Virus record (IMG/VR): IMGVR_UViG_3300045988_167691
Direction: 5' to 3' (one strand)
Origin: a virus
DNA length: 64,000 bases
Below, piece by piece: positions 4,701-64,000 of this stretch; the first letter of the stretch is position 1, and every line of letters starts with the position of its first letter. The position numbers and the translations under genes are program-made. The notes under the pieces are model-generated. The model worked only from the letters and a program-made list of their open reading frames with translations, had not been told where the DNA came from and did no database searches.

Positions 4701-7700
4701 TTATTTCCATCCACTTGGAACACCCTCGCAATTTGTGCCTGTAAAAGTCTGACTATGACTTGTTACATTATTGTTCCCAGACTCCGTTATCTTTACATAA
4801 TTGGATGATCCGGAAAGAATTTGAATAACAGGGACAGTTCCAAGTTTCGAGCAACCATAAAACATTCTGTCCATATTAACCTTTCCTACACCTGCTGATG
4901 ATCTATCGTATAGGGACGTGTATGAAACTGCATAGGTCTGTTCTGTTCCTAAAGAAAGATTTGTACAGTTTGCAAACATTTCAGTACAATTCAAATTACC
5001 ACTGATATTCTCAAAATTGGTATCATTAAACTGATTTCCTATATCCACATTCACAGGTCGTGCAGATGTTCCTGGTTGTCCTACATAATTCCCTGTTCTT
5101 CCAAAAGAAGTGAGTGACGTGCATCCTGCAAAGCATCTCCTAAGATTAGTAAGTGTCGTAAGATCATTAAAGAACTTAGCGGGAATTTGTTTCACACCCG
5201 TGTTCTCAAACATACTTTCTGCATTCTGCAACTTTCCATTCTTCATATTAAAAGAAGATATATCAGATAAATTCCTACAATTCGCAAACATTCTTGAAGC
5301 GTTTGTTACACTTGACGGAAGTCCCTGTCCATAAGGAATAGACAAATAAGTACAATTCTCAAACAATGACTGCATATTTGTTGCCTTCGAAGAGTAAGAA
5401 AACATAGCGGTAGACCAGCCGTCGACAAGACTTGTACAACCGACAAAGCAACCAACAAAAGAAACAATGTTTGTGCAATATCTGAACCATAATACCGGAA
5501 GTTCGGTTATGGCTGTGCAGCCTTGAAATGTATATTGCATATACTGTGCATTCGTTGAATTGCTAAATGGAGAACTTGTAGCTGATTGACCTCCTGTATT
5601 TTTCAAAGCCGTACATTCAAGAAATACAGCATGGAAATCTTCTGCGCCACCTCCCCTTCCAAAAGTACCATTGCCAACGCATGAAGTCAAACTCTTACAA
5701 CTTCTAAACAAGGAAGAATGATAAACACATGAAGTAGGAACAAGTTGACCACTCGGGAGACTTGTAACCCCACTGCTCCAGAAAGCACCCGCACAAGAAT
5801 TACCTGTCATTTTGGTAAACAAACCAGAAGGAATAGACCTAAGACTTGTGCAATCTCTAAACCAACAGATAACACCCCCTGAAATAGAAGGAATTGTGTT
5901 TGTTGCAATCGATGAAAGACTTGTACATCCTCTAAAGGCAGAATGGTTGCCGCCGGCATCGTCCACATTATAAGTGCCAGAACTTCCCTGAATAGAAAAT
6001 GATTCGGGCCACTGTTTGATTGCAGTAGCTCTTGTATGATTTCTGAAATTGGCATACACAGTAGAAGGGTTACTTGTATTTCTACTTCCGCCTTGTACCC
6101 TTACCTCTCTCCCCACTATTTCATAAACGCCATTTGATACAGATGGCGTTTGAGGCGATCCGCTATAAGAAACGATAAGAGCTTTCCAAAGATAAAGGTA
6201 AATACTGTTCCCTCCTGCGTTCGTTGATTCATCCCCTGTCCCTACACATTCCGAATCCGTAGCGGAAGCATACACATAACCTCCAGAAGGAGAAGAAACC
6301 GTTATCCTACCACTTCCATTTGTCTGATCTGTACCACTGTAATAAGACGATCCGTCAGGCGCGGTAGTTCTTATATTCACGGAAGCATAAGGTTGCAATA
6401 CATTTTCCTTTCTAAGATAAATATAAGTTGTCGTAAGCTCATAGTCAAGGGTGAAATCTATATACGTGTCAGCTCCCGATATTGCAATATTGTTTTTCGT
6501 TTGGGATTGATAATTGTCTGCCGTACAAGTGGCATTATACGACCCTGATTGTATTCCAGTAAGTGTAAGCTGTCCTTGTGAGTTGGTGTACCCACTCTTT
6601 CCTCCATAAGTTACGTAAGCTCGATTAATGTTATATCCATTTCGGGATTTCACTGTAATATGAGCACTGTAAGTCTTGTTAGAAACACCTACCCTTTGTT
6701 GTGGCATTGATTCCTGATTAACTGTGACAGAACCTTCCGTAGGCTGATAGTCATAAACGGAAACTTCATATCTGTAAGTTTTCCCCATCTGCATCATAAA
6801 GGTCGTTGTACCGTCCGACCCTGTATTTTGCGTACTAAGTCCTTCTGGTTTTACAGAAGCTCCTGAAACTGGAAGCCCTGTATCGGAATTATAAACATAG
6901 AACTGCACTCTCGTTTCTTTTCTTGGCATTGCAACATTCACCGTCTTTGGAAGGTCATTTGGTTGCACAACCCCTGTCTGGTTACTGAAATATTGCTTCG
7001 AAGCCACCCAATCATAACGCATTCTCGGAACAGAGAATTTGCTCTGTCCGTTATTAGTCAGACCTGTTTGTTCTCCTGCACCTCCTTGATTAAGCGTTAT
7101 CCTTGTACCGTTGGAAATGATACCGTTATCCTCTGTTACAACAAATGTAAGATCATACAAGGTTTGATCCATATAGATGCTCACCACTTGATCATTTCCA
7201 TTTACAGTAAATTGCTGCTCTCTGTCCTCATATTCCTCATAGGATGCTATGACAGTGTATTGTCCATTGGGAAGTTCCAACACAACACCAGAAGAATCTT
7301 CCTGCACAAAATCCTTATCGTTTACTTTCACTTTCGCACCTTCAACGACTGTTCCTCCTGCGCCATACACCTTGATAGTAGTCTTATAGGTAAGCTGTTT
7401 CAAGTCTATCGTAAGGTTCGAATTATTATAAAACTCATAGTTTTCCACATATACCCGTTGATGATTGTTGTCGTAAAATACATCATAAGAATATTTTCCA
7501 CCCAACACTCCTTCAAAAACAGCCTGCCCATTGTCAGAAGTCTGTTTTGTCAAACCTGCAAATCTTACGGTAGCTCCATTTAAAGGCTTTTTCTCTCCTG
7601 TAAAAGTGTTGTAGTCATTCACAGCAAACGTCATGCCAAAAGTAGGCATAGGATTGAAATTCACTTGTATATCCTTATTACTGTCCACAACAACATCCCC

Positions 7701-10323: not shown

Positions 10324-12339
10324 TTATTTTGCTTTTAAAGTTTGTAAATAGTTATATGCTTTGATACAGTCGTCTTTGGAGAGGAGTTGATCGTTGTAGA
10401 TGCCTAAGTTTTTTAGGGCTATTTTGGTAAAATTTGATTCATAAAAACCTAAAAATAAACGTTTTGAAATATCAATATCACTTCCAATAGGATAAACTTT
10501 GTATTTATCCCATTTTTCATCATACACCCATCCATCAGAAGTCAAAGCGTTAATCTTTTTACAAGAAAAAGGATAGCTTCTTAAACCCTGTTTTAAATAA
10601 ATCCTCATTCCTGTTATAGCATTATAGATGTAAATTTGATTTGCTTTCAATAATCCTGCATTATCTTTTCTATCTTCCATAAACTTCCAATCACCAACAA
10701 TGGTAAATTTATCTGCGAATTGAATTGGTTTAGCACTGATTATTCCATCATCCACCCCATCAGTAATGAGGTATCCTTCGTATTCGGGGATTTGCTCAAC
10801 TAAAACATCTACTTCTTGTGAAGAATTATACCATATACCATTTGTCGAAGTTGCAGCATACTGTTTTTGGAAAGTGTATGTACCATCTTCATTAACGCTA
10901 ATATATTCACCGCTTTTGTTTGCATTTCCAATAAAACAACGATCACCTTCTTTCATGCCTGTGATACGTATCTTCCAATCAGCAGAATTAGATGTATTTA
11001 ATAAAACCAAAGCATTACTGTTGTTCCCAGTTCCGATTATTCTAAATGAATCTTTTTTTACATCTGTGGGCTTAACTACATTATCTTTAAGATTAAATGA
11101 GTTGAAGTTATATGCATACAACCCATACCCACTCCCTTCTGCAAACCCAAAATTAGACAGCACAAGATCATTACCATTGCCCGTAATGTTGGCAATAGTA
11201 GCACGATCTTCGTCCTCATTGGTTTTGCCGGTGACAGTCCATGCCTGGTCGGGGAAGAGCCAGGGATAGGTTTTAACGAAGTAGTCTTTGATCTTGGTCA
11301 GCTCTTCTTCAGTGGCATCGTGGTCGAGAAATACAAGTTCCCAAATAGCAGCGTTAATACAAATTCCTACATTTCTTGTAGCTAATTTTCCAACATATAG
11401 CACATCTGTTCCTGTAAAATTACCAGTTATAATCGAAACACCATTATAACTTTTAGATGTCTGATAAGTAAGGATGTGTGGTGAATCCTTTTCACTCCCT
11501 ATTGTTCCAAAAGACATCGGACGATTAAAATAATTGGTATTTACATTACGATATTCTAACAAGAAGGCACCATCATTGAACCAATCCTTTACATTAGATA
11601 CTAATCCTGAGACTATTTCACCCCTTGTAATCCACTGTCTCAACGCCACAACCGTATATCCCTTTTCTTTAGTCAGAATAGGGAAGTTATCACAGGTACC
11701 GTAATCATCTACTCCGTCAAAAACGAGTGCACCGGGGTAGAGAGGTAGTTGTTCGATGGTGATATTGCATGATTCCTGTAATTTTAAGAACCTGAATCCG
11801 TAATAAGCTTTTTTAGCTCCAAAATCAAAACTTGGTAGATGATATATACCATCATTTTCAATTCTCATTATAACAGTTGCTTGTGTCCCATTCGAAACAT
11901 ATTCAATTCCTTGTCCGTCTGTTAAACCAGAAACTTTGATAGTACATGATAAAACCCTAAATCCAGTATCACTTAGTAATGATTGATAAAATAATTGAGC
12001 TAATCCATTATCCTTTATTGATCTTGCATTAAAAGACTTATAAGTCCAAGTGACATCAATTCTTGATTCTACCTTATACCATTTATTACTATTATAGTTC
12101 TCTGTATATCCACCTACCCCACTCATTCCACCCCAAGCAAAATTCTTCATCTGTAAATCATGTCCATTGCCTGTAAGGTCTTTCCATACAGGGTTCTCTG
12201 CCATCTGTTCATTAGTAAGACCTAATGCTGAATACCTTGCAATCATACCAGGTACAGATGGGAAAGGAGTTACTCCACCCCCTCCCCTAAATCTCCTAAA
12301 AGGAATTGCATTAATATTTCCTATTAAATTCATTGTCAA
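10324..12339 (-). CDS. tail fibre / receptor-binding protein with an internally duplicated LamG (concanavalin-like) module
   Basis: 671 aa. It has two copies of LTGNGHDLQMKNFAW.. / ITGNGNDLVLSNFGF.. and of PGALVFDGVDDYG / EGYLITDGVDDG. The DGVDDY motif is typical of Laminin_G_3-type domains. Confidence 0.5.
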   Translation of the reverse strand: MTMNLIGNINAIPFRRFRGGGGVTPFPSVPGMIARYSALGLTNEQMAENPVWKDLTGNGHDLQMKNFAWGGMSGVGGYTENYNSNKWYKVESRIDVTWTYKSFNARSIKDNGLAQLFYQSLLSDTGFRVLSCTIKVSGLTDGQGIEYVSNGTQATVIMRIENDGIYHLPSFDFGAKKAYYGFRFLKLQESCNITIEQLPLYPGALVFDGVDDYGTCDNFPILTKEKGYTVVALRQWITRGEIVSGLVSNVKDWFNDGAFLLEYRNVNTNYFNRPMSFGTIGSEKDSPHILTYQTSKSYNGVSIITGNFTGTDVLYVGKLATRNVGICINAAIWELVFLDHDATEEELTKIKDYFVKTYPWLFPDQAWTVTGKTNEDEDRATIANITGNGNDLVLSNFGFAEGSGYGLYAYNFNSFNLKDNVVKPTDVKKDSFRIIGTGNNSNALVLLNTSNSADWKIRITGMKEGDRCFIGNANKSGEYISVNEDGTYTFQKQYAATSTNGIWYNSSQEVDVLVEQIPEYEGYLITDGVDDGIISAKPIQFADKFTIVGDWKFMEDRKDNAGLLKANQIYIYNAITGMRIYLKQGLRSYPFSCKKINALTSDGWVYDEKWDKYKVYPIGSDIDISKRLFLGFYESNFTKIALKNLGIYNDQLLSKDDCIKAYNYLQTLKAK

Positions 12340-12348
12340 TTCCTTTCC

Positions 12349-12675
12349 TTAAAAACCTATACTAAGATTGGTTGCCGTTGTCCCTTCTTTCAAAATCTTC
12401 TGAACCATGTACATGAGTGGCATTCCTATATTTGCACTCACTTCCGCTTCCGAAATGGTATATTCCATTCCACCTGAAAGGATTACCTTAATTGCCCCTT
12501 CGGAAAGAGGAATAACTACAAACGGAACTTCTTGTCCGTTTTGGTCAATCAGCACAATATCTTCTTCAATTGTGGCAAAATTCCATGCACTGCTGATTAA
12601 AGAAGGTGCTGCTTCACCATTAGTAGTTATCAGCTTATTGGAATTAGCTGTTACTGTTCTTTTAACTATATCCAT
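12349..12675 (-). CDS. hypothetical small protein next to the invertible segment
   Basis: 108-aa ORF. No recombinase-like motif. Confidence 0.4.
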   Translation of the reverse strand: MDIVKRTVTANSNKLITTNGEAAPSLISSAWNFATIEEDIVLIDQNGQEVPFVVIPLSEGAIKVILSGGMEYTISEAEVSANIGMPLMYMVQKILKEGTTATNLSIGF

Positions 12676-12774
12676 GATTATGAAATTTTTAAACGTTTAA
12701 AACAAAGTATATACTTACCCACAAAAATAACCTTTCTTTTTGAGAAAATACAAAACCTACCTTCTTTTCTTTCG

Positions 12775-12841
12775 CCAATCCAATTACCAATTAGATACAT
12801 CATACAAATACGTTTCCCTTTTGATAGTTGGAAGGGGAGGT
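12775..12841. repeat. inverted repeat, left arm (IR-L), 67 bp, perfect
   Basis: The reverse complement of 12775..12841 equals 14394..14460 base for base (checked by hand). In both copies it encodes QSNYQLDTSYKYVSLLIVGRGG in frame. Confidence 0.95.
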
Positions 12842-13558
12842 TACGGTAAAGATACCGACAATGCTCCAAATGCGCCTGAATGGTATGGAGGTTGCATGGG
12901 TGGAGACAGTGCAATTGTTGCTTATCAGAAGAATTTTATAATAAGTCAATCTATAGACGGAATGTGGAGATATGAAACTATAGATTTCAGAAAATCAATA
13001 TCAGGAAACATGGGTCTTTACGTAAAATTTGTGTGTTATGGCTCTACATATGAAGTGTTTTTGGGCGATCAAAAAAATGGACAAGAACATAGAGATACAT
13101 ATTGGTTTTTCAAAGTGAACGGGCAAGGAAATCTTTCGCCGTTCATTTATGGTAGAAACGAAGGAGGTCTCGCAACACCTGAATTGGTTGCAGGAGCAGG
13201 AGGAAGTAGCAGTAGCGGACAGTATAGTACATCTATTTCTGGTATGAAATACGGTGGGGTAGGTGGAGATGGAAGATATGGCAATCAAGGTCCAGAGTAT
13301 AATTCAGGACTAAAAGCTGATTCTACTATCCCTGTTCAATCTATTTTTGGAGGTACAGGGTACGGAGCAGGGAGTTATTTCGCTTCAACCGACAACTGCA
13401 AAGCCGGCGGCGCGGGAGGTTATGGAGATGGAAGTATGAACGGCAGAGCTGGATATGGTGCTGGCGGAACAGCTTTCAAAATATCTTCATCTTCAACTGA
13501 TTTTTATAATGAAGGCAACGGGATTGTCTGCTTGTATTATCATAACAACCCTCTGTAA
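12842..13558 (+). other. silent alternative C-terminal cassette for the 2297-aa baseplate-J/fibre protein (no ATG start of its own)
   Basis: The plus-strand ORF 12740..13558 is open only from a TTG. After the IR it reads YGKDTDN...GGAGGYGDGS...GIVCLYYHNNPL. This is paralogous to the active tail ...GGAGYGDSY...GIFCIYYHNEPI, and both share IPVQSIFGGT. Confidence 0.8.
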
Positions 13559-13567
13559 ACAAAAAGA

Positions 13568-13596
13568 AAAGGGAGAGTGAAAAATATGCTCTCCCT
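13568..13596. terminator. bidirectional hairpin between the two convergent cassette stop codons
   Basis: aagggagag-tgaaaaatatg-ctctccctt, a 9-bp stem in the 55-nt gap between the stops at 13558 (+) and 13614 (-). Confidence 0.55.
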
Positions 13597-13613
13597 TAAT
13601 GATTCTCAACAAG

Positions 13614-16600
13614 TTATATAGGTTCGTTGTGGTAGTATATACAAAATATACCTTCTCCTGGTCTTGTAATATTTCCCGCATCATCATCTGCCGGAGAAGA
13701 TTCTTCTCCAGAACCATACCCAGCAATTCTTGTCTTTCCTCCGTCTGGAGAAGTGAAATAAGAATCACCATAGCCTGCGCCTCCATATGCGGATGCACCA
13801 GTTCTTTGTCCAGATAAAGTGTTCAAATACCCAGCTCCACCTTTACTTGTACCACCAAAAATAGATTGGACAGGAATAACAACTGAGGATTGAATAGGTT
13901 TAGTCACTTTTCCCAAAACAGTATCTTCATAAGAACTTTTAAATCCATATTTACCATCTCCACCTGGTGCACCGTCTGGTTGTATTCTTAGACCTGTAGA
14001 AGGATAAGTTTCTTCTTTTGCGTTTTGGCTTCCCGGACTTCCACTACAATAGAATGTACCTATCATGTGGGCAGCAAAACCACCGGAACTTTTTGCATTA
14101 TATACAGAATAATTGCCCAATCTACTTCCTTGTGGCATGGGGAGATCGGCATCATTTTGAGCATTACCTTTCCCATTATAGGCTCTACATTCATAAGTTG
14201 TTATTCCTAATCTTATGGAATACTCTGTGCCTTCTGTCCAACTGCCTGTATTTGGTATAGAACTAAATGTAATTTTATTTATTTGGCCATTTGAAATATC
14301 CGACATCAATATATTAGGAATATACACAATTTGTCCAGTTGTTCCACCCATCAATACAAATTCATTCCAAGAATCCCAATACTCAAATTTTTCACCTCCC
14401 CTTCCAACTATCAAAAGGGAAACGTATTTGTATGATGTATCTAATTGGTAATTGGATTGGTCACTTGTTATCTGCACCAACTTGTTCGGTTTAGTTAGGG
14501 TGTATTCCAAATTCACACTTGTTTGATAAACCCCACTTATACTTCCTGTCGTTGAAAAATCACTGAAACCAGAAGATGTAATCTTAATCTGATAATTTCC
14601 CGCAGGAATTTTGTCAAACCGTGCCGTGTATGTTGCTGGTCCTGCCGAACCTGTATGCTTCTGCCCTTCTGAATCTGTAAATTCCACATTACCACCAGTA
14701 GGGTTTACTTTTACTTGCACCATATACAGCGGAGTAAGATTTACTTGCACCTGCATTCCTTCACTGTTCACAGTAATGCTTTGGGATGTTTCTTTGGAAA
14801 AATCCCCTTCCGGTACATACAAGATATACTGTCCGTATGCGACATTGGCGAACGTTACGGTAGTGGTTATATTTTTAGTCTGAATCACCTCTAGCCCCGT
14901 ACTGTCCTTTAGTTGGATTTGGCTTGGCATACCTTGCATTTGTCCAACTCTTCTTACCTGAACATTCAGAGCACTGTATATCTTCTTTAAAGAAATATTT
15001 ATCTCTTTAGAAGAAGTTACATAGTCCGAATAGACTGTGTTTTCATAGCCACTCTTTTCTACGGTAAAGATATTTGAGCCACTCTTTACCGTAAGAACAG
15101 CATTCCCTTGCGAATTTGTAACGCCCGTTACTTTTACATTCCCGTTTTCGGCTGTAACCTTTGCGCCTGAAACAGGAGAACCGCTTGATGTATTCTCCCT
15201 TACAGTTACAGTTACACTCACACCCTTTTCCAATGTAACAGAAATACTTTTTATTTCAGAAATAACACCAGTTTCTCCAGTTGCAGTCATATATCCATCG
15301 GCAGCAACTTCATAACTGAATGACTGTCCTAATGGGACATTTATTCTTGCCACGCCATCTTGTCCTGTCGTACCGGAATATATTTTCCCATCAGTTTCCG
15401 ATACAGTAATCCTTGCACCCTCTAAAAAAGTTGTTCCGCTATCGCCACCATACACCAAGAAAAGCAATGTTGTAGTTGAAGAAATAAACACTTCTTGATT
15501 TACAGAGGGCAAATGAACAGACATAAAGCCTTTTTTAGGCTGCAATGGTAAAGGTGGGGTTACCACATAATCATAACTTCCATACAAAACTTTATTTTCT
15601 GGAATATCCGAACTTTTTACCTTCTTTCCGTAGAAAGAGAATGTGATATTCAAATCTTTCAAATCATCTGCGGATAATGTACCTCCGTCAAAAGATTGCA
15701 CATACACTGACCAAATGGTAGGATTACCTATTGTTTTTGTATCCAACAAAAGATCAGAAAGCTGGAATCTTTGAATTACATCATTTTCCATCTCCACCGT
15801 TAAGGGAGCGTTTTGCGAGCCATAAGTTATAACTATCTTCAGATTGGACGGAACACCACTTACCTTAAAACCAAAATCCAAAGCCTTGTGATAATCCACT
15901 GTCTTTTCTGTGCCAATTTGGAAAAGACCATTCGAAAACCCTATAAGTCCGGCATCCACATTAAACAAAACATAAGTCTCTGTAGAAGCTGTCGATGTCT
16001 TAATTACACTCGTTAAAGTAAGGTTCTTTTTCGTTTTATCCCAGCTTCCCTCCCAGCCATCTATTTTATTTGAATTGTAAATTCTGGTAAGACTTTCCGT
16101 AATACCACCATTATCCTTATCCTGAACAATTGTCAATGGAGAAACAATTACACCATTGGGGAAATAGGTTTTTAATTGATCTGTTGTTACACCTTCCGAT
16201 GGAACAAGATATTTTTCATCTTCTTGAAAAACAGGACAACCGGAAAAATCCGCATCGCTGTCTTGTGACCACTCAAACTCTCCACCATCAAACGTCATAA
16301 TAGCAACACCACTGCTGTTTGTAGTTCCTTTATATTTATTGGAAGAGTTATTTCGATCAACCATCGTCACGACAGCGTTTTCTATTGCAGTATTTTCATC
16401 TTCAACCTTGACGGTAAACTGGACATCTGATATTTGCTTCATTTCAAAGCTAATATCAGCCTGTCCATTGCTTACCGTAAACTCGCCACTAAAATCCAAA
16501 TAGCCGTCTTTTGTTGCTGTATAAGTGTAATTCCCGTTTCTGTTCTGGAATGTAGCAACACCACTCGATGCTTTGCCTGAATCAATCACCGTGCCAGGAG

Positions 16601-19600
16601 CTTCCTTTCTATAAATATTGATATCTGGATTTGCATAAGCAGGCGTTATCTGAAATATAATGCTATACTTCACGTAATCAGTAAGGTCAATATCAACCTG
16701 TTTCGCTTGTAATCCAACTTCAAAGCTGCCGTCCGGTACATCTATCAAATCAGAATTATTGCTTTCGTCAGTCGGGATCGAATAAGTATAGCTCCCCTCC
16801 GGTAAAGAAATAGTAGCTATTCCACTTTGATTAGTAACGATCGTTTGGGGAAGAACCCTTTGTGTCGCACTATTTACTACAATCTTAACATCTGACTTGA
16901 CACTGTTACTTACTATTGTCTTAAACGTGACAATAGCTCCCCGTATCATCGTTATACTTACACTCGTTTCAGCTTCGTTTACCCTTACCGTGCCGTTCCC
17001 AGATTGATAACCTTCCTTCGAATAGGTGTATGAATGTGTACCTGTAGAAAGATTTGTTTTTGCTGTACCATCCTGTGTTGTTGTGATTGTTTCTGCGTTA
17101 TCTATAACAATTTTAGCACCATCAACAAAACCTCCTTCTTCGTCTTTTACAGTAAATGTCGTTTCAAACCCAAAAACCAGTTCAACTGCTTTTTCTTGGT
17201 CGGCATCCTGTATGCTGCCTACACCTTCTTCTGGTGAGTATCCTGCAAGTAACGCACCCCAATCATAAGCACCGTTTATTACCTGTACAGGGTCAGTCGT
17301 ACCATCGTCTTTTGTTTTGAGGCTTACAGTGTTCCCACTTAATATGGCTGCACCACTCACACTGACGGCTACATCCTTTAATCCTGATTTTCCTGCGGCA
17401 GTCACTTTAAAGGTAAGATTCCATATCTTCTTTAAAATCTGTGTAAACGTTTCCTCTTTTGTTACTTCAAAAGGTAGTTCTTCACCCTTATACCCTTCTT
17501 TTGAAAATGTAGCCGTGTATCGCCCTGCTTTCAATTTTAAAGTAGCTTCACCATTTGTTCCGGTAACAAGAGCTTCTTCTTTACCGGAAATCCCAATAGA
17601 TACGCCTTGCAAAAGATTGGGGGAACTCATATTGTCTTTTGCAATAAACGTAATATTGTAAGACATAGGAACAAGCTGCACCAGCACATCTTTATTGCTG
17701 CCAGAAACCGATATGCTACCTTGTGTCTGTACATATCCGTCTTTTGTTACAGTGTAAGGGTAATCTCCATCAGAAAGACGAACTGTTACCAATCCACCCT
17801 GCGAAGTCTGATAGTCCTTTTCGTTGATATGAATATTAGCGTTTTCAATTGCAACACCTTCATCTGTCTGTACAGTAAATACAATATCGTATTTCTTGTA
17901 CTCCATATTTACAGGGAAAGACGGAATATCCGCACTTACAACTTCCAGCTCGCCTAAATAATCGTCCATACCATTGGCAACCACCGTAAACGGATATGTA
18001 CCATTTTTTAACTGCAAGGACACCTCACCATTATCCTGTGTCTGATAAGACGTTGCATTTATCTCCACTGTAGCCCCCTTAATAGGTTCTTTCAATGGAT
18101 TTTTTACCGTCATTATGACATTGTAAAGTCTTGCCTTTAAACTTATTACACTACTGTTATCACTGTCAAGAACAGTAACCGAAGAACTGCCGTCATAATA
18201 TCCCGACTTTGTTACGGTATAAGGATATGTCCCGTTTTGAAGGCTTGCAACAGCTTGACCTCTTTCATTTGTAGGATAAGAAGAGCCATTGATATTTACT
18301 GCTGCTCCTTGTGCCGGACTACTGTTATCACTGTTCTTGACAGTGATAACCACATTATAATGTTTCAATACAAGGGTTCTTCGAATTAATGTATCCTGTC
18401 CTTCTACGTTGAACGATCCGGTCAAATCATCATATCCCTTTTTCTGCACGGTGTAGCTGTAATTTCCACTCTTTAATTTTATAGTAGCTTGTCCAGAACC
18501 GTTTACATTCAATACTCCCGGCTGTCCTTCTATTTTGATTGTAGCTCCTTCTGCCGGATTCCCCTGATTTACCTGCGAAATATTAAATTCCACATTGTAT
18601 AAAAAGAAATCCATCTCAAAGGTAACGTCCGCATTCTGGTTGTTGACCTTAATTTCCCCCTGTAAAGTATCATACCCTGTCTTTTCGATTGTTACAGGAT
18701 ATTCACCATTTACAAGTGGTATTTCCACCTCTCCATGCTGGCTCGTAAGATATTCTCCATTGTTCACCTTTACAATGACATTCGGTATAAGCTGATTTTC
18801 CTTATCCTTTACAATGACAGTAATCGTCCATACCTTAAATTCCAATTCAGGATATACTTCTTTATCTCTACCATCCACAACTACACTGCCGGAATACTCA
18901 TCATATCCCAACTTTTCAATAGTGTAGGGATAGTTCCCGTTCCTTGCGGACAAAGAAGCCACACCTTGCAAATTGGTAGTGGTTGTTCTGTTATCCATCG
19001 TTACATTTGCATAAGGAACAACCCCTCCCTTTTCGTCCGTCATATGGAAAGTGACCGTATAAGGAGCTAAAACCATTTGTACATCAATGAAAACACTACC
19101 GTTCAACACTACAAACATTCCTTCTGCGGGGATATATCCCGAAGCGGAAACAATATATTCATACTGTCCGTTTGCAAGTTGGATAATAGCTTGTCCGTTG
19201 TCATTAGTTACAACCGCATTGTTTCCTATAGAAATATTTGCACCCTCAACAGGTCTCCCATCCGAATCTGTTACATTGAAATAAACCTCTTGATAAAGGT
19301 TAAGTGAACTGTCATTAATACCCACAAACAAATCTTCCGATTCTGCCGGATAGAATAGTGGTGAAAGGTTGCTGTCAGAATCGTACAAAACATTGCCGTC
19401 TTGATCTCGCATAACGAACCCTCTGATACGCGGTAACTGGTTTGCCGGAACTTGCTGGTCGTAATACGGAAAAAAGTATTCGTCCGGCACATATTTTACA
19501 CCATCGGTCTTTTTTACAATATCCAGCAAATCGTCCCATTCTACGATTTTTCCAGGTGTCCAAAAACGAAAATCAAGATATTTAGTAAGGCTCACTTGTA

Positions 19601-20507
19601 TGTTCTGACGCACAGTAGACACATCGTAATCCGGTTGAAGCTGAACACGGAAATCCAACCCCCTTTCTGAACCCACATAGAACCAATCAATATTCTTGAT
19701 ACCAATACCAACTACTTTCCCTTCAATATTCAGTTCTGAAATACCAAAATATCCTTGTGCGCTTTCAAGAAGTGTATCAAGTTCTTCTTCGGTAAAGAAA
19801 ATACCGTTCTGCGAAACAACATAGAGATTATATATGCCCTTTTCGTCCAGACCGGCACTCATTACTTTTAAGACACGATCGTCTATGTTGCTAAGTGTCT
19901 GTGTCCAGTATTCTATTGTATTCTTGCTAAGGATATTCAGATTGTTCTTAATACGGATTCTAAACGTTTCATCATCCTCACTATCACGTCCTCCAATAGC
20001 ATAATATTCATTCGTACATTCGATATGACCTTGTGGCTGCGGAGAAACATTAGTAATGCTATTAGGCGGTACGTTTGTGGAATACCCTGCGTTGATACTT
20101 CTTACCTTTACATATCCGTAACCACTTTCCCCTACAGTCAATGCTTCGTCAACTTGGAAACGAATACCGTTCTTGTTCACAAAAGTAACGTCAGTACCAT
20201 ACACAGTACCAGGATCAGCAGACACCCTTATATATGTCGAAGAACCCAAAGCACCTTTACGCGGGCTGACACCATACAAAGCAGCAGCCTTATCCAGATA
20301 AACGCCTGTAGCTGTATCTGGAAATATCTGCGCTTCCTTTATGGCAATATCCTTCATTGCCTTTTGAGCAACTTTCGCTACACCGAATGCCGTAGCATTC
20401 ACAACCGAACCGTCAGCTACATTACTTACCTTGGCAGTCTTATCCAAAAACATCTCTATAAAGAGATTTTTCAAATTGGTTATCGTTGCACTTGTTTTTG
20501 TAATCAT
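13614..20507 (-). CDS. baseplate J (Mu gp47 / P2 gpJ / T4 gp6)-like protein fused to a long repeat-domain fibre, with an exchangeable Gly-rich C-terminal tip
   Basis: 2297 aa. The N-terminal ~200 aa show the Baseplate_J pattern (...VYLDKAAALYGVSPRKGALGSSTYIRV...GGRDSEDDETFRIRIKN). At least 13 consecutive ~85-90-aa carboxypeptidase-regulatory-like repeats follow, with ~4 more after an unrelated ~350-aa domain. The C-terminal ~260 aa lie inside the IR-bounded segment. Confidence 0.8.
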   Translation of the reverse strand: MITKTSATITNLKNLFIEMFLDKTAKVSNVADGSVVNATAFGVAKVAQKAMKDIAIKEAQIFPDTATGVYLDKAAALYGVSPRKGALGSSTYIRVSADPGTVYGTDVTFVNKNGIRFQVDEALTVGESGYGYVKVRSINAGYSTNVPPNSITNVSPQPQGHIECTNEYYAIGGRDSEDDETFRIRIKNNLNILSKNTIEYWTQTLSNIDDRVLKVMSAGLDEKGIYNLYVVSQNGIFFTEEELDTLLESAQGYFGISELNIEGKVVGIGIKNIDWFYVGSERGLDFRVQLQPDYDVSTVRQNIQVSLTKYLDFRFWTPGKIVEWDDLLDIVKKTDGVKYVPDEYFFPYYDQQVPANQLPRIRGFVMRDQDGNVLYDSDSNLSPLFYPAESEDLFVGINDSSLNLYQEVYFNVTDSDGRPVEGANISIGNNAVVTNDNGQAIIQLANGQYEYIVSASGYIPAEGMFVVLNGSVFIDVQMVLAPYTVTFHMTDEKGGVVPYANVTMDNRTTTTNLQGVASLSARNGNYPYTIEKLGYDEYSGSVVVDGRDKEVYPELEFKVWTITVIVKDKENQLIPNVIVKVNNGEYLTSQHGEVEIPLVNGEYPVTIEKTGYDTLQGEIKVNNQNADVTFEMDFFLYNVEFNISQVNQGNPAEGATIKIEGQPGVLNVNGSGQATIKLKSGNYSYTVQKKGYDDLTGSFNVEGQDTLIRRTLVLKHYNVVITVKNSDNSSPAQGAAVNINGSSYPTNERGQAVASLQNGTYPYTVTKSGYYDGSSSVTVLDSDNSSVISLKARLYNVIMTVKNPLKEPIKGATVEINATSYQTQDNGEVSLQLKNGTYPFTVVANGMDDYLGELEVVSADIPSFPVNMEYKKYDIVFTVQTDEGVAIENANIHINEKDYQTSQGGLVTVRLSDGDYPYTVTKDGYVQTQGSISVSGSNKDVLVQLVPMSYNITFIAKDNMSSPNLLQGVSIGISGKEEALVTGTNGEATLKLKAGRYTATFSKEGYKGEELPFEVTKEETFTQILKKIWNLTFKVTAAGKSGLKDVAVSVSGAAILSGNTVSLKTKDDGTTDPVQVINGAYDWGALLAGYSPEEGVGSIQDADQEKAVELVFGFETTFTVKDEEGGFVDGAKIVIDNAETITTTQDGTAKTNLSTGTHSYTYSKEGYQSGNGTVRVNEAETSVSITMIRGAIVTFKTIVSNSVKSDVKIVVNSATQRVLPQTIVTNQSGIATISLPEGSYTYSIPTDESNNSDLIDVPDGSFEVGLQAKQVDIDLTDYVKYSIIFQITPAYANPDINIYRKEAPGTVIDSGKASSGVATFQNRNGNYTYTATKDGYLDFSGEFTVSNGQADISFEMKQISDVQFTVKVEDENTAIENAVVTMVDRNNSSNKYKGTTNSSGVAIMTFDGGEFEWSQDSDADFSGCPVFQEDEKYLVPSEGVTTDQLKTYFPNGVIVSPLTIVQDKDNGGITESLTRIYNSNKIDGWEGSWDKTKKNLTLTSVIKTSTASTETYVLFNVDAGLIGFSNGLFQIGTEKTVDYHKALDFGFKVSGVPSNLKIVITYGSQNAPLTVEMENDVIQRFQLSDLLLDTKTIGNPTIWSVYVQSFDGGTLSADDLKDLNITFSFYGKKVKSSDIPENKVLYGSYDYVVTPPLPLQPKKGFMSVHLPSVNQEVFISSTTTLLFLVYGGDSGTTFLEGARITVSETDGKIYSGTTGQDGVARINVPLGQSFSYEVAADGYMTATGETGVISEIKSISVTLEKGVSVTVTVRENTSSGSPVSGAKVTAENGNVKVTGVTNSQGNAVLTVKSGSNIFTVEKSGYENTVYSDYVTSSKEINISLKKIYSALNVQVRRVGQMQGMPSQIQLKDSTGLEVIQTKNITTTVTFANVAYGQYILYVPEGDFSKETSQSITVNSEGMQVQVNLTPLYMVQVKVNPTGGNVEFTDSEGQKHTGSAGPATYTARFDKIPAGNYQIKITSSGFSDFSTTGSISGVYQTSVNLEYTLTKPNKLVQITSDQSNYQLDTSYKYVSLLIVGRGGEKFEYWDSWNEFVLMGGTTGQIVYIPNILMSDISNGQINKITFSSIPNTGSWTEGTEYSIRLGITTYECRAYNGKGNAQNDADLPMPQGSRLGNYSVYNAKSSGGFAAHMIGTFYCSGSPGSQNAKEETYPSTGLRIQPDGAPGGDGKYGFKSSYEDTVLGKVTKPIQSSVVIPVQSIFGGTSKGGAGYLNTLSGQRTGASAYGGAGYGDSYFTSPDGGKTRIAGYGSGEESSPADDDAGNITRPGEGIFCIYYHNEPI
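14394..14460. repeat. inverted repeat, right arm (IR-R), 67 bp, perfect
   Basis: See IR-L. This arm lies inside the 2297-aa ORF at ...ITSDQSNYQLDTSYKYVSLLIVGRGG|EKFEY... Confidence 0.95.
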
Positions 20508-42528: not shown

Positions 42529-42726
42529 CTACTTTGATTTTTGACTAACCATTTTCTTCGTCAAGTCCATTAACATATTGTTTATCTGTGTCGAGAAAAT
42601 GACCTGCGCCATCCCTTCATAACCTTCTTGTACTTTAGGATAACGCATAGGGTCAACATGATGATGTATATTTGACACCAACGGCATTTTCTCGACTTTT
42701 ATGTTCTTTACATATCGAACGTTCAC
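42529..42726 (-). CDS. hypothetical small protein
   Basis: 65-aa ORF between the portal and MuF-like genes. Confidence 0.35.
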   Translation of the reverse strand: MNVRYVKNIKVEKMPLVSNIHHHVDPMRYPKVQEGYEGMAQVIFSTQINNMLMDLTKKMVSQKSK

Positions 42727-45700
42727 GATCCCCCCCAGTTCTTCTCAATGTAAGACATAGCAGCATCCATGATAGGATTCGAACTGAAAGATTTTTGTGT
42801 ATCTTCCTTTTCTTCCGAAGCTATCTGACGATCCACTTCTTCATTCATCGCTTCTCCACCATACATAGCTTGCTGTAATTGCATTTGCTTTTGAAGCTGG
42901 TAAGATTGATTCAGGATAGTATCCGTTTCGGGATTGAATTTACGTCCAGAGTATTTTTCAAAAATATCCTCTAAGCAAACCATACCGTTTTGAATCTTCT
43001 TAGCATCAATCTCAACCTGTCTGCCTTCATCCTCTGCGTCTACACCTGTAAAGACAAATTCAAAATCTTCGTCCAATTCTGATACAAGATAGTAATTGAT
43101 CACCTCTTGTAAGAACACAAGAATAGGTTTTAATCCTTTGTCTTTTGAATGTTGCAAACGCTCCTTTTGTCCAGCTTGTCCAAAGATATTTGTCTGATCT
43201 TTAAATTGGAAACCAAGTTCTGATGGATCAATACGATAGACGGCACAAGTCATAACAAGTAGGAATTTCACCCACTCGCTAAACTCCATGTCACGGTTGG
43301 TATTCTTACTTAAATCTAACCACTGGAGGTCTAACCCGTTGATAATGGGCGTTCTGTGGCTATTATGGGTAAGAATACCGTTGGCAATAAATTGATGCTC
43401 GTTGTCAAAAACTTCTACATCATACATTTCGACTTCTTCTTCCGTTTCCTCTAAAAATTTGATTTCCGAAAAATAAAAATCATTATATTCGTAAGGAAGA
43501 TCAAAATTCATTTTTTTAGCAACTTCAAGAAGTCCAGCTTGCGTTATCCCATCATGACCAATTCCTATACCAATTAATTTTCTCGAAAGATTTTTGTCTA
43601 TTTGGTCTTCTTCTTTGAAAACATTTCTTCTAAAAGACTCTACCCTCATCTCATTAGCAATCCTTTGCATCATTTTGGGGTGCAGAGAAAACGGTTCTTT
43701 GTAATCCAACAAAGACGATCTTTGTTTGTAAGGCTGAATAAAAGATATCCTTTCAAAGAAATCTTTTCTATTTTTAATCAAAAGAAGAAATCCGCCTTCA
43801 TGCGGTTCTTTATTTAGTTTTGTCTTTCTTCTTACGTTACCTTCCGAATAAGTGCATTGAATCCCTTCAGCTAACAATAATTCTCTAAATTGATGTCTTA
43901 ATCTATTGTTAACTATTGTTATTTGAGGGGAAGGTGAACTTTTAATAGTACATCCATCAGCAGAAAACATACCTCTTATAAAGGCACATCTGCATTCAGA
44001 AGAAATCCTAAACAATACTGGAGCTATTGTTTTGCCTTTACAACTTGGAGTAAAACCCAACTCCATCAAAAATTCAAAAAACTGTTTGTCGGAACACAAG
44101 ATAGAAAGTCTTTCTAAAAGAGTTGATTTAAACCCATACCTTCTTTTTGTATCTTCAGCCTTTTCTTCTGTTATCTTAGTTCTTTTTATATAATTATTTA
44201 TTCCATATTTGTTTAAAATTGAATGAATGTGTTCGCTTATATAAACTTCTTTAATACTATGAAAATAAAAAGAGATTCTCTTTCTACTTGGATTTCCATT
44301 ATCAATATGTCCGTCACCAATCAGCCACCCAAGCATCTCAAAGAAATCGGCTTCAAGTTCTTTTCCTTTATAATATAAAGTCAAAGTTTGAGGTAATGAT
44401 TTTTTGTTAGATAAAACATAATCTCCTAATTTAATATCTTTTCTCTCTTTCCATTCTATAACCCCATTATCAGACACAACCTTAAATCTATGCTCTGGAG
44501 AAGATTCAATATACATCCCATTAGCAACACCCAATTTGCATATTTTCTTCTTCTGCGTTTTCGTAACTCGAGCATCGACAAAAGATTTACCTGTCCATAT
44601 TTTTACATCCCTATACTCCAATCCATTCAATACGCCTTCCAAAGACACAAGTCCTTCGTTTTCTGTTACAATTTTAGTGCTTCCAACCAGACAATTACGA
44701 GTCCCCACCATAGTCTGTTGCCAAGCCTGTCTGAACTCATCCAAAGAAGATTGAGATATGTTCGGATTCTTAACATTTATGATTCCTTTTGGTTGAGAAG
44801 ATTTGCTAAAATAATTTCCGTTATATTCAAACCCCCACAAAATCCACATCATAACACTGGACAATGTTTCCAGTTCTGACGTGCCATACCCATTTTTATA
44901 GATGTTGGTGGATTTATTGCGGATACCGATGCCCAATTCCCAGGGATAAAAAATAACACTTTCATGCGTAACAGGATTTTCCATGATCTGTCCTTGCCAT
45001 GCCATACAATATTTTGGCAAATAACCTTTGAACCGGTACTGTTCAAATTCTTCCCGGAACTTTGGATCAATGCTATCAAGAAAACGTATCAAAGAAGCAT
45101 CCACAGCCCGGTAACGAGCCAAATTCCAAGACCTGTCTCTTACTATTTCAAAAGCAAGCTGATCAAGAGTAAGGCTATCAAACACAACCTTTCTCCCAAA
45201 GTCTTGGAATGTATCAAATGATTCCCATTTGTCATGGAAACCGCCTTCTTCCAAGAATTTACGAATATAGGCTATCTTTATCTGATCTTCTCTTGAATGT
45301 TCTGTACTTTGTTTCTCAAAAGGATTTCTTTTTCTTCGGATAGTGTAACCTTCTTTCTGTTCATCTGTTGAAAAATGCAAGAAATTCTGTACCTGTTCAA
45401 CACGGGTATTCACCACAGCCCGGACAACAAAAATGTCCCCCATCCTTCGAAGTACTTCAAAAGGAAGCGACCCGTAAAACATAGGGTCTTTATATCCTCT
45501 TCCCGTATCACTTGCTTCATCTGGATTAAAGAACACAGCCTTTACATTGTCCTGTCTTTGATTGACATTATCCAGGTACAAATTAGCTTTTAAAAGATTT
45601 TCCAAATCATCAGAACGAGACATCTGCTGTAATTTGGATTGAAGCAAAGTAGGAAGAGTTTTCTGCAATCCTACAATATCTTCCAAAGAAAGGCTGGCCA

Positions 45701-45758
45701 GACCCTTTAACAGGTCTGACTTTCCTTGATTTTTATTTTTGTCTCTTTTCCTACTCAC
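42723..45758 (-). CDS. portal protein interrupted by an intein (precursor 1011 aa; predicted spliced product 567 aa)
   Basis: It lies upstream of the MuF-like, protease, scaffold and capsid genes. The ORF is continuous, with an intein signature inserted after ...QQTMVGTRN. Confidence 0.65.
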   Translation of the reverse strand: MSRKRDKNKNQGKSDLLKGLASLSLEDIVGLQKTLPTLLQSKLQQMSRSDDLENLLKANLYLDNVNQRQDNVKAVFFNPDEASDTGRGYKDPMFYGSLPFEVLRRMGDIFVVRAVVNTRVEQVQNFLHFSTDEQKEGYTIRRKRNPFEKQSTEHSREDQIKIAYIRKFLEEGGFHDKWESFDTFQDFGRKVVFDSLTLDQLAFEIVRDRSWNLARYRAVDASLIRFLDSIDPKFREEFEQYRFKGYLPKYCMAWQGQIMENPVTHESVIFYPWELGIGIRNKSTNIYKNGYGTSELETLSSVMMWILWGFEYNGNYFSKSSQPKGIINVKNPNISQSSLDEFRQAWQQTMVGTRNCLVGSTKIVTENEGLVSLEGVLNGLEYRDVKIWTGKSFVDARVTKTQKKKICKLGVANGMYIESSPEHRFKVVSDNGVIEWKERKDIKLGDYVLSNKKSLPQTLTLYYKGKELEADFFEMLGWLIGDGHIDNGNPSRKRISFYFHSIKEVYISEHIHSILNKYGINNYIKRTKITEEKAEDTKRRYGFKSTLLERLSILCSDKQFFEFLMELGFTPSCKGKTIAPVLFRISSECRCAFIRGMFSADGCTIKSSPSPQITIVNNRLRHQFRELLLAEGIQCTYSEGNVRRKTKLNKEPHEGGFLLLIKNRKDFFERISFIQPYKQRSSLLDYKEPFSLHPKMMQRIANEMRVESFRRNVFKEEDQIDKNLSRKLIGIGIGHDGITQAGLLEVAKKMNFDLPYEYNDFYFSEIKFLEETEEEVEMYDVEVFDNEHQFIANGILTHNSHRTPIINGLDLQWLDLSKNTNRDMEFSEWVKFLLVMTCAVYRIDPSELGFQFKDQTNIFGQAGQKERLQHSKDKGLKPILVFLQEVINYYLVSELDEDFEFVFTGVDAEDEGRQVEIDAKKIQNGMVCLEDIFEKYSGRKFNPETDTILNQSYQLQKQMQLQQAMYGGEAMNEEVDRQIASEEKEDTQKSFSSNPIMDAAMSYIEKNWGGS
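43362..44693 (-). mobile_element. intein (444 aa) with a LAGLIDADG homing endonuclease domain
   Basis: It starts at Cys356 (CLVGSTKIVTENEG..., codon tgt at 44691..44693). It ends ...FIANGILTHN (Asn799, 43362..43364), followed by the +1 Ser. It has two LAGLIDADG-type motifs, LGWLIGDGHI and IRGMFSADGC. Confidence 0.8.
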
Positions 45759-55494: not shown

Positions 55495-56184
55495 TTATAG
55501 TAAAGGCGGAACTTTCGCCCCGCCTGAACCAATAAAAACAAAAAAAGTGTGATGAAGAAGATTATCTTTTTTTTGTATTTTAGGCTGTAAACATTCCCAT
55601 TCTGATTTAAACATAAAAATGAACCCTTTGTGAGATTTTGATTTATGATTACAACAATCATTTAAACGGGACTGTGTAGCATTAATTGATCTACAACAAA
55701 ATCTTCCTGATTTCCATTCTTTTATTAAATTAAAATTTAAATCTAATTGAACTATAGGAATGCTATTGTAATTATAGTTCAATTTTGATAATCTAATTTT
55801 TTCGTTCCTTGTGCCATAATTATTGTTGTAAAGTATGTTACACCATTCTAAATTAGATACAATGTTATTGTCTTTTGTTTCGTCTTTATGGTTTATTATT
55901 GGAAATTTATTGGGATTTGGTATAAATTCCCAAGCAACCAAACGATGCACTTTAACTAAATGAGATTTTGAATGTTTACTTTTCAAACAAACTGTTTTAT
56001 ATCCATTTTTGTCTGTTCCTAATTTTAGAATTTTAGGGGTATTTACTATAATTCGATCTTTTTCTCCTTGCCTTTTAATAATATAAGTGAAAGGCAAGGA
56101 TCGAACTCTTCCTAAATTAGAAACTTGATATCTTCCTTTAAAGATGTTGTTTAAAAAGGTAATATCTTTCCAAACTTCATCCAT
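55495..56184 (-). CDS. free-standing HNH homing endonuclease (NUMOD4 + HNH_3 type)
   Basis: MDEVWKDI...YQVSNLGRVRSL (NUMOD4-like), then NGYKTVCL...VHRLVAWEFIPNPNKFPIINHKDETKDNNIVSNLEW. Confidence 0.65.
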   Translation of the reverse strand: MDEVWKDITFLNNIFKGRYQVSNLGRVRSLPFTYIIKRQGEKDRIIVNTPKILKLGTDKNGYKTVCLKSKHSKSHLVKVHRLVAWEFIPNPNKFPIINHKDETKDNNIVSNLEWCNILYNNNYGTRNEKIRLSKLNYNYNSIPIVQLDLNFNLIKEWKSGRFCCRSINATQSRLNDCCNHKSKSHKGFIFMFKSEWECLQPKIQKKDNLLHHTFFVFIGSGGAKVPPLL

Positions 56185-59627: not shown

Positions 59628-59896
59628 AACAAGAAGATATTGAAAAAGCAGCAAAGTCTTATCAAGAAAAAGATCATGATATTTGGACTGGTAAAGGTAT
59701 GGCAACAGAATTACAAAAAGCCTTCAAAGCTGGTGCAGAGTGGCGTATTAATTCGGTGTGGCATCCTACAACCGTAATTCCAGAATGCTATTGTTTTGTT
59801 GTGTTTCTCCCTAAGAAATCAACAATAGGATCAAAAAATTCAGGTGATTATATACTACTTTACACCACAAATATAAGAAATTGTTTTTATATATAA
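59624..59896 (+). CDS. hypothetical protein; its 3' end runs into the TnpB element end
   Basis: 90-aa ORF. The last ~18 codons lie inside the element end motif and beyond it (from 59843), so the native C-terminus may have been replaced by the insertion. Confidence 0.4.
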   Translation: MKQEDIEKAAKSYQEKDHDIWTGKGMATELQKAFKAGAEWRINSVWHPTTVIPECYCFVVFLPKKSTIGSKNSGDYILLYTTNIRNCFYI

Positions 59897-63093: not shown

Positions 63094-63127
63094 TTCCTAT
63101 ATATAGTATATATACTATATATAGGAA
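63094..63127. repeat. 34-bp perfect AT-rich palindrome
   Basis: ttcctatatatagtatatatactatatataggaa equals its own reverse complement (checked by hand). Confidence 0.9.
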
Positions 63128-63921
63128 AATAGATTTGTAGCTGGTTTTATAGCTCCTAAAATGGTATCGTACATTCGCGCTCCAGCGAATAGATACCATT
63201 TTAAAAACAATCATTATACACCACCAACGAAGAAGATAGTATAAGTATATAGATAAAAGAAGACGAAAAAGAGGTTATCAACCACTCCAAAAACCGCATA
63301 AACAAAGAGGATAGAGGGAATAGAGGGTGATTTAGGGAAAGGGAATGAGAATAGGAAAGTGCGAGGCGACGAGAGCATAACTAAACCATACCGGCAAAAA
63401 CATACTGACCAAACCAAACCATACTATCATAAATAAAGCAGCATAACCATACCGGCGAAAATAAAGCACAACCGTTATATGTGTCAATTTGCAGAGCATT
63501 TCCGGCAATGAGAGTGCATACATATCTCCTGAATCAACATCTTCTACCTACTTTTAAACTCTTTTCTATTTACTCCAAACCTTTATAAGCACATTCACGT
63601 AATTGCTTTCTATTGTTTAGACTAATTCTAAATAACGGTATTTCCTATTCCTTGGCATACTCTTTTCCTATTTTCTTGCACAAGTTTCCCCGATTTTTAG
63701 CTAATTTATTGATATTCAACTATTTGTGTATCAAGTTATTTTAAGCTCTTTTTATAGGGGTCTTTTTAATTGGTAGGGCAATACTGCTTTTCCTTCCAAA
63801 GCGTGCTACATTCGCGCGATAACGCGCTACCATTTCGCGCACTTTGGTACAATAAGTAACAAACTATCAGCATAAAAACATACATTCCACTACTTAATTA
63901 ACCTTTCTTAACTGTATTTCC

Positions 63922-63952
63922 CTTGTTATGTAAGAATAAAGTATTACCTTTG
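63922..63952 (+). promoter_or_regulatory. Bacteroides-type promoter with TGTAAGAATA in the spacer; the gene starts at the window edge (ATG 63998)
   Basis: cTTG, a 19-nt spacer containing tgtaagaata (63929..63938), then TAccTTTG (63945..63952). Confidence 0.5.
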
Positions 63953-64000
63953 TATCAAAGAAAAGAACTAATAATAACAACTAAAATAATTACAATCATG

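Follow-up and report, generated by a model that had tools for sequence, protein, structure and literature searches.

A probable inversion switch, framed by in-frame inverted repeats, for the tip of a Baseplate_J fibre in an uncultured human-gut Bacteroidota phage

The 64,000-nucleotide stretch of viral DNA held as IMG/VR record IMGVR_UViG_3300045988_167691 (the window, or WIN where it is set beside the related loci and contigs compared in this analysis, which carry L-numbers) contains, within the coding sequence of a 2297-amino-acid (aa) baseplate fibre, a 1552-bp segment bounded by perfect inverted repeats (IRs). The locus is probably a two-state gene-splicing inversion switch for the tip of this Baseplate_J fibre, perhaps flipped by general homologous recombination. 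Its identity as a two-state inversion switch is well supported, and loci of this kind very probably invert in nature; the window's own copy, with arms that match at 67/67 positions and an intact alternative tip (tipB), is quite likely to be still competent. That the exchange is made by homologous recombination and not by a site-specific enzyme is a tentative choice. The features of the locus are as follows.

12775..12841, plus strand: left arm of the IR, on the side of the gene gp108; codes for QSNYQLDTSYKYVSLLIVGRGG, read from 12776 in the tipB frame
12842..13558, plus strand: tipB, silent class-II tip cassette, 238 aa and a stop codon; open frame with no conserved start
13569..13597, no strand given: hairpin between the two stop codons, within the invertible segment, from folding; reads as an intrinsic terminator of the minus-strand fibre mRNA
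13614..14393, minus strand: tipA, class-I tip cassette fused to the fibre body, 259 aa and a stop codon; C-terminus of the 2297-aa open reading frame (ORF)
14394..14460, minus strand: right arm of the IR, on the side of the fibre body; codes for the same 22 residues, in frame with the 2297-aa ORF
14461..20507, minus strand: constant fibre body, Baseplate_J N-terminal domain and 10 CarboxypepD_reg/PEGA-like repeats (Pfam)
12349..12675, minus strand: gp108, the downstream gene; conserved with or without the cassette, no Pfam or PHROG match
12722..12754, minus strand: putative Bacteroidota-type promoter of gp108 (TTTG, 21 nucleotides, TAtttTTG), read by eye; outside the invertible segment

A repeat search returned the two arms, 12775-12841 and 14394-14460, as 67 nucleotides (nt) of 100% complementarity spaced 1552 nt apart, and both arms translate in frame to the same 22 residues (QSNYQLDTSYKYVSLLIVGRGG), the codon frame beginning at 12776; an initial annotation of the window, made from the sequence alone, had described just such a repeat in coding sequence. 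Outside the arms the adjoining sequences are unrelated. No other inverted repeat of the region comes close in length; the runners-up, one of 54 nt (76%) and one of 31 nt (81%), lie within the two cassettes. The 2297-aa ORF (13614..20507) has, by Pfam, an N-terminal Baseplate_J domain and 10 CarboxypepD_reg repeats; its body extends as far as the first strand of a Gly-rich tip domain (...SYKYVSLLIVGRGG), and tipA forms its C-terminus. TipA and tipB are Gly-rich and convergent, approximately 30-31% identical, and have in common the motif IPVQSIFGGT and the ending GI(F/V)C(I/L)YYHN(E/N)P(I/L), which upholds their earlier description as paralogous cassettes. The plus-strand cassette has no ATG of its own, as had also been claimed, its only in-frame upstream start being a TTG at 12740. 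Reciprocal exchange within the repeat would invert the 1552-bp segment, so that the body would be fused in frame to tipB and tipA would fall silent; gp108 and the downstream fibre genes would keep their own promoter, outside the segment.

Relatives carry loci of this type in both orientations, which are known from separate assembled contigs. The 105-kb ENA contig k141_388717 (L065) was reached through P0018, a tipC-like protein that had been called as a short ORF. In this contig the Baseplate_J fibre is 2661 aa long and carries at its end a tipB'-type tip with 77% identity to the tipB of the window; the silent slot holds a tipC-type cassette with 79% identity to the tip that L005 expresses. 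TipC is expressed, that is, fused, and tipB' silent in L005-L009; tipB' is fused to an intact fibre of 2660-2661 aa, and tipC silent, in L065, L274, L271/L277 and L272/L273. A blastn comparison of L065 with L008 shows collinear flanks, the left one as far as the left arm extends and the right one from 3463 onwards, and between them 1861-3528 matches in inverted orientation at 93% identity; the overlaps between these matches are exactly the IR arms, and the inversion breakpoints of the tipC/tipB' lineage fall exactly in the IR. Another pairing is likewise found both ways round: L275, from a Human Microbiome Project sample, expresses a D-class tip and keeps an A-class tip silent, and the reverse is the case in L020, L029, L043 and L051. 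In every dual locus a class-I (A/C-like) tip is paired with a class-II (B/D-like) tip, and the fused tip may belong to either class. The flipped segment of L271 is 99.2% identical to that of the unflipped L006, as against 88.9% to those of the flipped L065 and L274, and the flipped segment of L274 is 97.8% and 96.7% identical to those of the unflipped L009 and L008, respectively. Orientation is thus discordant with the phylogeny of the segment (the 99.2% and 97.8% pairs), which implies at least two independent inversions, recent ones that took place across very short evolutionary distances.

The silent cassette is preserved. Searching IMG/VR with tipB gave eight loci (L002-L009), in which the gene order is that of the window: gp108 (minus), IR, a tipB-like cassette (plus), hairpin, another tip (minus), IR, body (minus). 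A tipB-type cassette is intact in all nine genomes (the window and L002-L009), one of them with an in-frame deletion of 16 codons, and the pairwise ratio of nonsynonymous to synonymous divergence (dN/dS) among the nine is 0.12-0.22 where dS is 0.2-0.97, and some 0.16-0.2 at a dS near 0.9. In four of the nine, the stretch from the preceding stop codon to the IR of the cassette contains neither ATG, GTG nor TTG, and gene callers in public data place the starts of tipB-like ORFs at scattered, inconsistent positions. Intact frames, purifying selection and a missing start together argue for the silent cassette of a switch and not for a relic; a tip under purifying selection without a start of its own is what the silent half of a switch would be expected to look like. 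The reading of tipB as a decaying pseudogene was rejected on the intact frames and the dN/dS values. Between the window and L002, identity is 99.6-100% from gp108 through tipB and the hairpin, 90.8% in tipA and approximately 98% in the body (region 12349-14393); a recombination breakpoint therefore lies at the hairpin, within the stretch that inverts.

The arms of the IR are identical to each other within WIN, L003, L005, L006/7, L008, L043, L051, L274 and L275, and they differ between lineages at many synonymous sites (for example, ...CCCTTTTGATAGTTGGAAGGGGAGG vs ...CAATGTTACTTGTAGGAAGGGGAGG vs ...CCCTTCTGATAGTAGGGAGAGGGGG). A derived T of L003 is present in both of its arms, and polymorphic blocks, for example ACATCATAC/ACTTCTTAC and CCAATT/CCTCTT/CTTCTT, make up the arms as mosaics. 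The length of the IR differs by lineage (39, 45-48, 53 or 65-68 nt), the inner end being constant at GRGG and the outer end variable. The two arms thus evolve in concert, and this pattern across lineages backs the proposal, first made from the perfect repeats of the window, of ongoing recombination or gene conversion. The converse possibility that had been entertained, a decaying plus-strand cassette whose IR identity is not conserved in related genomes, is contradicted by the selection on tipB and by the concerted arms.

The spare cassette is unevenly distributed. TipA is fused to the fibre body in 50 IMG/VR contigs; approximately 37 of these have only about 145 nt between the stop codon of tipA and gp108 and no second cassette, five have an IS605-type TnpB ORF inserted between the tip stop and gp108, and eight have an inverted start-less cassette before gp108 (three of the tipB type and five of a related "tipD" type). 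The IRs of tipD-type loci are shorter (38-43 nt by arm extension, 39-50 nt by BLAST) and are perfect in L043 and L051. MT835500.1, the only relative in GenBank, is without the cassette, and gp108 and the other immediate neighbours are the same genes in cassette-bearing and cassette-less relatives. The phage family is common in human-gut metagenomes, with dozens of contigs of 85-108 kb from many samples, and the switch is an accessory feature of this widespread family. The insertion gap of TnpB in five relatives is the exact slot which the silent cassette occupies in others. TnpB-only ORFs of the IS605 type (OrfB_IS605 with a Cas12f-like TNB domain) sit at differing sites across family members: at 59881-61143 (plus) in the window; at about 4850-6170 in L027, L032, L038, L045 and L058; and at 8573-9778 in L061, 6158-7369 in L064, 2725-3909 in L271 and 1038-2270 in L066.

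The question of which enzyme might turn the segment was addressed with Pfam and PHROG scans of approximately 85 ORFs from the window and from the rest of contig 163890, a 106-kb cassette-bearing relative (IMGVR_UViG_3300045988_163890) pieced together from L004, L127, L131 and L203; about 50 window ORFs of at least 100 aa were scanned by Pfam, and the precomputed Pfam annotation of ENA and Logan contigs that flank both sides of the window was added. We could not identify any Resolvase, Phage_integrase or Recombinase match among the ORFs of at least about 100 aa in the window and the remaining ~42 kb of the relative. No gene cluster tracks the cassette in the ~45-kb replication module, where the largest frequency difference between 9 cassette-bearing and 19 cassette-less genomes is 0.28. 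The statement in the initial annotation that no invertase is in sight therefore extends to these further 42 kb and to the co-occurrence test, and its statement on the neighbours holds as well: gp108 and a 671-aa fibre-like ORF are without a recombinase hit, and the search of gp108 against profile hidden Markov models gave no Pfam or PHROG match. The Mpi consensus, taken as ARACGTWCGT, is absent from the IR, its matches in the window being at chance level. No gix match was found in the IR at up to three mismatches, which agrees with the earlier report of no hix/gix-like sequence there, although the test, made with a single gix sequence, is a weak one. Two other systems were considered and rejected: a diversity-generating retroelement, since the scanned ORFs gave no RVT_1 hit and the repeat is inverted with identical arms, and an Rci-type shufflon, since there is one IR pair only and no Phage_integrase hit.

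The phage does encode recombination proteins. RecA (PF00154, E 2.7e-69) lies just outside the window, flanked by a Metallophos (SbcD/Mre11-like) protein and by an SbcC-like protein of 832 aa (phrog_77, 3.7e-43), a toolkit comparable to the one that UvsX and gp46/47 form in T4-like phages. This Metallophos-RecA-SbcC-like block, at 48-4561 of L131 in contig 163890, is followed by an NAD-dependent ligase and Dam, and more than 60 related contigs share the conserved RecA/SbcCD-like module. The rest of contig 163890 also encodes DnaB, PolIII alpha, TerL, UvrD and SNF2 helicases, an NAD ligase, two methylases, RNase H and antirepressor-like proteins.

Several points weigh against a working switch that is flipped by general recombination, and they are taken here together with the explanations that draw on them. 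All four genomes with the tipA/tipB pair have tipA expressed. An exact-pattern scan of IMG/VR for the flipped body-IR-tipB junction of this pair gave 0 matches, and a looser-pattern scan of Joint Genome Institute (JGI) metagenomes gave one, L277, a tipB'/tipC strain identical to L271 and not the pair of the window; a flipped tipA/tipB assembly was found neither in IMG/VR nor in the JGI metagenome collection nor in protein clusters. The tipB search of 5.8 billion protein clusters, which returned short proteins only, is uninformative, since the known 2297-aa tipA fusions were likewise not returned. The only hint of a flipped state for the window's own pair is in L270 (ENA ERZ28621432 scaffold_2205), where 5900-6010 reads body end, ten Ns, 12 nt of gp108-side flank, IR and tipA; this is ambiguous, since either a mixed population has left traces of the flipped junction here or scaffolding went wrong at the IR, and protein P0020, a candidate for a silent tipA that comes from this same scaffold with its N10 gap at the IR, was set aside for that reason. 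The in-frame tip swap between IRs that the initial annotation proposed is therefore borne out by the sister tipC/tipB' and A/D-class pairs, seen in both orientations, and not by a flipped tipA/tipB pair. Moreover, the arms have decayed in L004 (seven mismatches), L029 (four) and L020 (three), so that the switch may be dying in these lineages, and it is dispensable, given the approximately 37 of 50 tipA genomes that do without a second cassette. One could thus suppose that the lineage of the window no longer inverts, that tipB is a separate protein of ~245 aa or a reservoir for gene conversion, that conversion alone keeps the IRs identical, and that the flipped relatives are rare rearrangements. 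In favour of this are the uniform orientation of the four genomes, the lack of a cassette in most relatives, and a start (ATG; TTG in the window) which in many cases falls within the IR, at the L/M residue of VS(L/M)L(I/L)VGRGG, and is used by gene callers. However, start positions are inconsistent and four of nine genomes have none, no Bacteroidota-type promoter was seen by eye to face tipB, class-I and class-II tips are each found both fused and silent, orientation differs between segments that are 97.8-99.2% identical, as after recent and repeated inversion, and the arms of the window are perfect over 67 nt amid unrelated flanks; we regard a lineage without ongoing inversion as improbable. 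Still more improbable, to the point of being nearly negligible, is that the flipped genomes are artefacts of the inverted repeat in de Bruijn graph assemblers. The IR does exceed the k of some assemblers, and the odd junction and N10 gap of L270 lie at the IR, but L065 and L274 are MEGAHIT k141 assemblies and L272 a k127 assembly, and k-mers of these sizes span the whole IR of 66-68 nt and both flanks, which makes such an artefact unlikely; the flipped state is present in at least three strains from different samples and assemblers, one flipped contig being a SPAdes NODE, and the flipped fusion ORFs are intact.

With regard to the catalyst, general homologous recombination between short identical repeats would make the exchange, through the phage's own RecA and SbcC/SbcD-like (Rad50/Mre11-like) machinery or that of the host; the outcome would be a low-rate, bet-hedging switch, and recombination and gene conversion would keep the arms identical. 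We lean tentatively towards this mechanism because the IRs vary in length (39-68 nt) and in outer boundary, the arms show mosaicism and concerted evolution, and RecA and SbcCD-like genes are present on the phage itself; the occurrence of both isomers in relatives also bears on it. Against it, homologous recombination on 39-68 nt is normally inefficient, repeats of this size being short for a RecA-type reaction. Many phage ORFs are without a family match, which leaves room for a novel recombinase, and the core of the IR (TACAAATAC(G/A)TTTC ... GG), including the terminal G-rich run, is invariant in every arm of all lineages and could equally be the recognition site of a protein. The same switch might then be flipped by site-specific exchange at this core, by an invertase of the Bacteroidales host acting in trans or by a highly divergent phage protein among the dozens of ORFs concerned. 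The fixed inner boundary of the IR fits such an enzyme, and Bacteroidales genomes encode numerous tyrosine and serine invertases whose target repeats are unlinked to them (PMC8042965, PMC9881135). Yet about 106 kb hold no recombinase family match, no gene of the ~45-kb replication module co-occurs with the cassette, the IR holds no site of the Mpi or gix type, and its variable length, variable outer boundary and mosaic arms are as expected of variable crossover or conversion tracts. The core also encodes the conserved strand YKYVS...GRGG, and constraint on the protein explains most of its invariance. On balance site-specific exchange, though the main rival, seems less likely, and general recombination is retained as the working mechanism. 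The broader proposition, that a virulent gut phage maintains a programmed, reversible host-range switch without a dedicated recombinase by keeping an in-frame inverted repeat of 40-70 nt identical, and that its RecA and SbcCD-like proteins flip the tip at a low, useful rate, is possible and is put forward with somewhat greater caution than the mechanism itself.

Tail-fibre inversion switches are textbook examples for temperate enterobacterial phages with Gin-type invertases; in the Mu G and P1 C type of system the inversion occurs between IRs inside coding sequence and is presumed to switch host range. As in Mu G/Gin, P1 and P7 C/Cin, e14 P/Pin and p15B Min, a constant N-terminal fibre is here spliced in frame to one of two opposed C-terminal parts. 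The logic of Mu G, P1 C and p15B Min that the initial annotation had recognised thus applies to the architecture of the segment, its constant N-terminus and its alternative C-termini, but not to the invertase gene or the crossover site: no Gin-family invertase (Resolvase PF00239 with a helix-turn-helix) is adjacent or found elsewhere in about 106 kb, and no gix/cix-like site was seen in the gix search, a weak test. Further differences from Mu G and P1 C are that the segment consists of two tips and a hairpin, without the tail-fibre assembly (U/U') genes, that the fibre is a Baseplate_J fusion with Gly-rich tips, and that the host phylum is Bacteroidota and the phage virulent-looking, with its own DnaB, PolIII alpha and RecA and no integrase. 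In shufflons, such as Rci of R64 and the receptor-binding-protein shufflon of a Bifidobacterium prophage, inversion reportedly exchanges the specificity domain at the C-terminus of an adhesin or receptor-binding protein. Several segments with short sfx-like sites are involved there, and a tyrosine or serine recombinase is linked to them, whereas here there are one segment, one IR pair and no linked recombinase.

Serine-invertase switches of tail fibres are cited in PMC9881135 and bioRxiv 10.64898/2026.02.14.705889, and systematic surveys of gene-altering inversions list prophage tail fibres with enriched nearby recombinases (PMC9881135). The gene-altering inversions of Bacteroidales, namely SusC/SusD shufflons with Tsr tyrosine invertases and intragenic invertons, share with the present locus the host phylum and IRs in coding sequence that serve to exchange gene parts (PMC9881135; bioRxiv 10.1101/2023.03.11.532203). 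Both of these are chromosomal and served by nearby or global host invertases, whereas the locus described here is on a phage and has no linked recombinase. The closest recombinase-less precedent found is the 30-kb isomerisation of cyanophages (A-1(L)/N-1 group, Elbi), which occurs between IRs and for which general recombination has been proposed (bioRxiv 10.64898/2026.02.14.705889). In both cases the two isomers coexist or occur in relatives and no dedicated recombinase has been identified; the cyanophage IRs, however, are 400-700 nt long and enclose a ~30-kb module with no gene spliced, whereas those of the fibre locus are 39-68 nt, lie in frame and rewrite a C-terminus. We found no published description of a tail-fibre inversion switch in Bacteroidota gut phages, nor of one without a linked recombinase.

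The locus is a real, evolutionarily active tip-inversion switch, and the novelty that remains is mostly in how flipping occurs. Bacteroidales hosts phase-vary their surfaces by DNA inversion, and a flip switch carried by the phage would be the counterpart in that arms race. Should general recombination suffice, this would be a minimal, portable inversion switch made only of sequence; short in-frame IRs could be widespread and easily missed carriers of spare receptor-binding tips, and they would offer a simple design for engineered host-range switching. Start-less "hypothetical" ORFs of ~250 aa that adjoin fibre genes can be silent tips.

TipB matches Gly_rich_2 (PF21722) at E 0.005 and 17.3 bits, below the Pfam gathering cut-off of 24.3, and weak matches of this kind occur in 5 of 25 family members. 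A profile search found no PDB sequence match for the tip; its AlphaFold model is poor (predicted local distance difference test, pLDDT, 56), and the best Foldseek match of that model, the tail tip of Bxb1 (E 0.012, template-modelling score 0.28), is not significant. Its "receptor-binding" role is a putative one, suggested by the distal position on a baseplate fibre and the weak similarity to Gly_rich_2. Fibre length is 2297 aa in the window as compared with 2660-2661 aa and 2859 aa in the relatives L065, L271 and L275, and the alignment of the bodies contains gaps; the number of CarboxypepD_reg repeats presumably differs accordingly.

The hairpin at 13569-13597 folds well, at -15.6 and -14.9 kcal/mol (z -4.1 and -3.1). 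It had been described as bidirectional; the hairpin between the stop codons is there, but a proper U-tract follows it on the minus-strand transcript only, the plus-strand U-tract being poor, so that activity in both directions is not clear. After inversion, the mRNA of fused tipB would meet the hairpin in the orientation without a good U-tract, and the two states might therefore not have the same degree of transcriptional read-through into gp108. The putative promoter of gp108 was called against the consensus of Bacteroides promoters; on the same by-eye reading of the sequence, no comparable motif of the Bacteroidota type points at tipB.

The phage is well supported as an uncultured, virulent-looking human-gut Bacteroidota myophage. 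Its major capsid protein is 33-36% identical to those of the Bacteroides thetaiotaomicron myophages DAC16-23 and SJC03 and of a Chryseobacterium phage, and approximately 30% identical to those of SPO1-like Bacillus phages. No integrase was found in the scanned ORFs of the window and the rest of the 106-kb relative, and a virulent lifestyle is therefore likely. The 671-aa fibre-like ORF at 10324-12339 (minus) had been labelled LamG, but it has no Pfam hit that would support this label. Patches of it are 85-92% identical in DNA to the crAss-like phage cr1_1, to csAssE-Sib and to Parabacteroides merdae phages, and the homologous stretch of csAssE-Sib is annotated as pentaxin family; the patchy matches suggest that gut phages of unrelated families trade fibre modules.

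Selfish elements are unusually numerous in the genome. Pfam matches in the window include TnpB (59881-61143), HNH and NUMOD4 endonucleases (ORFs at 1821-2303 and 55495-56184, respectively) and an intein, with LAGLIDADG domains, in the portal gene (42723-45758, minus); the TerL, DnaB, PolIII alpha and UvrD genes of relatives hold inteins or homing endonucleases (L061-L064; L127 15484-18018; L203 20-4651). Scans of the whole window for tRNA genes and Rfam families were empty. The last ~2.5 kb of the window (61450-64000) is gene-poor, with small ORFs only, and relatives are gene-free at the same place, for example L067 at 12317-14872.

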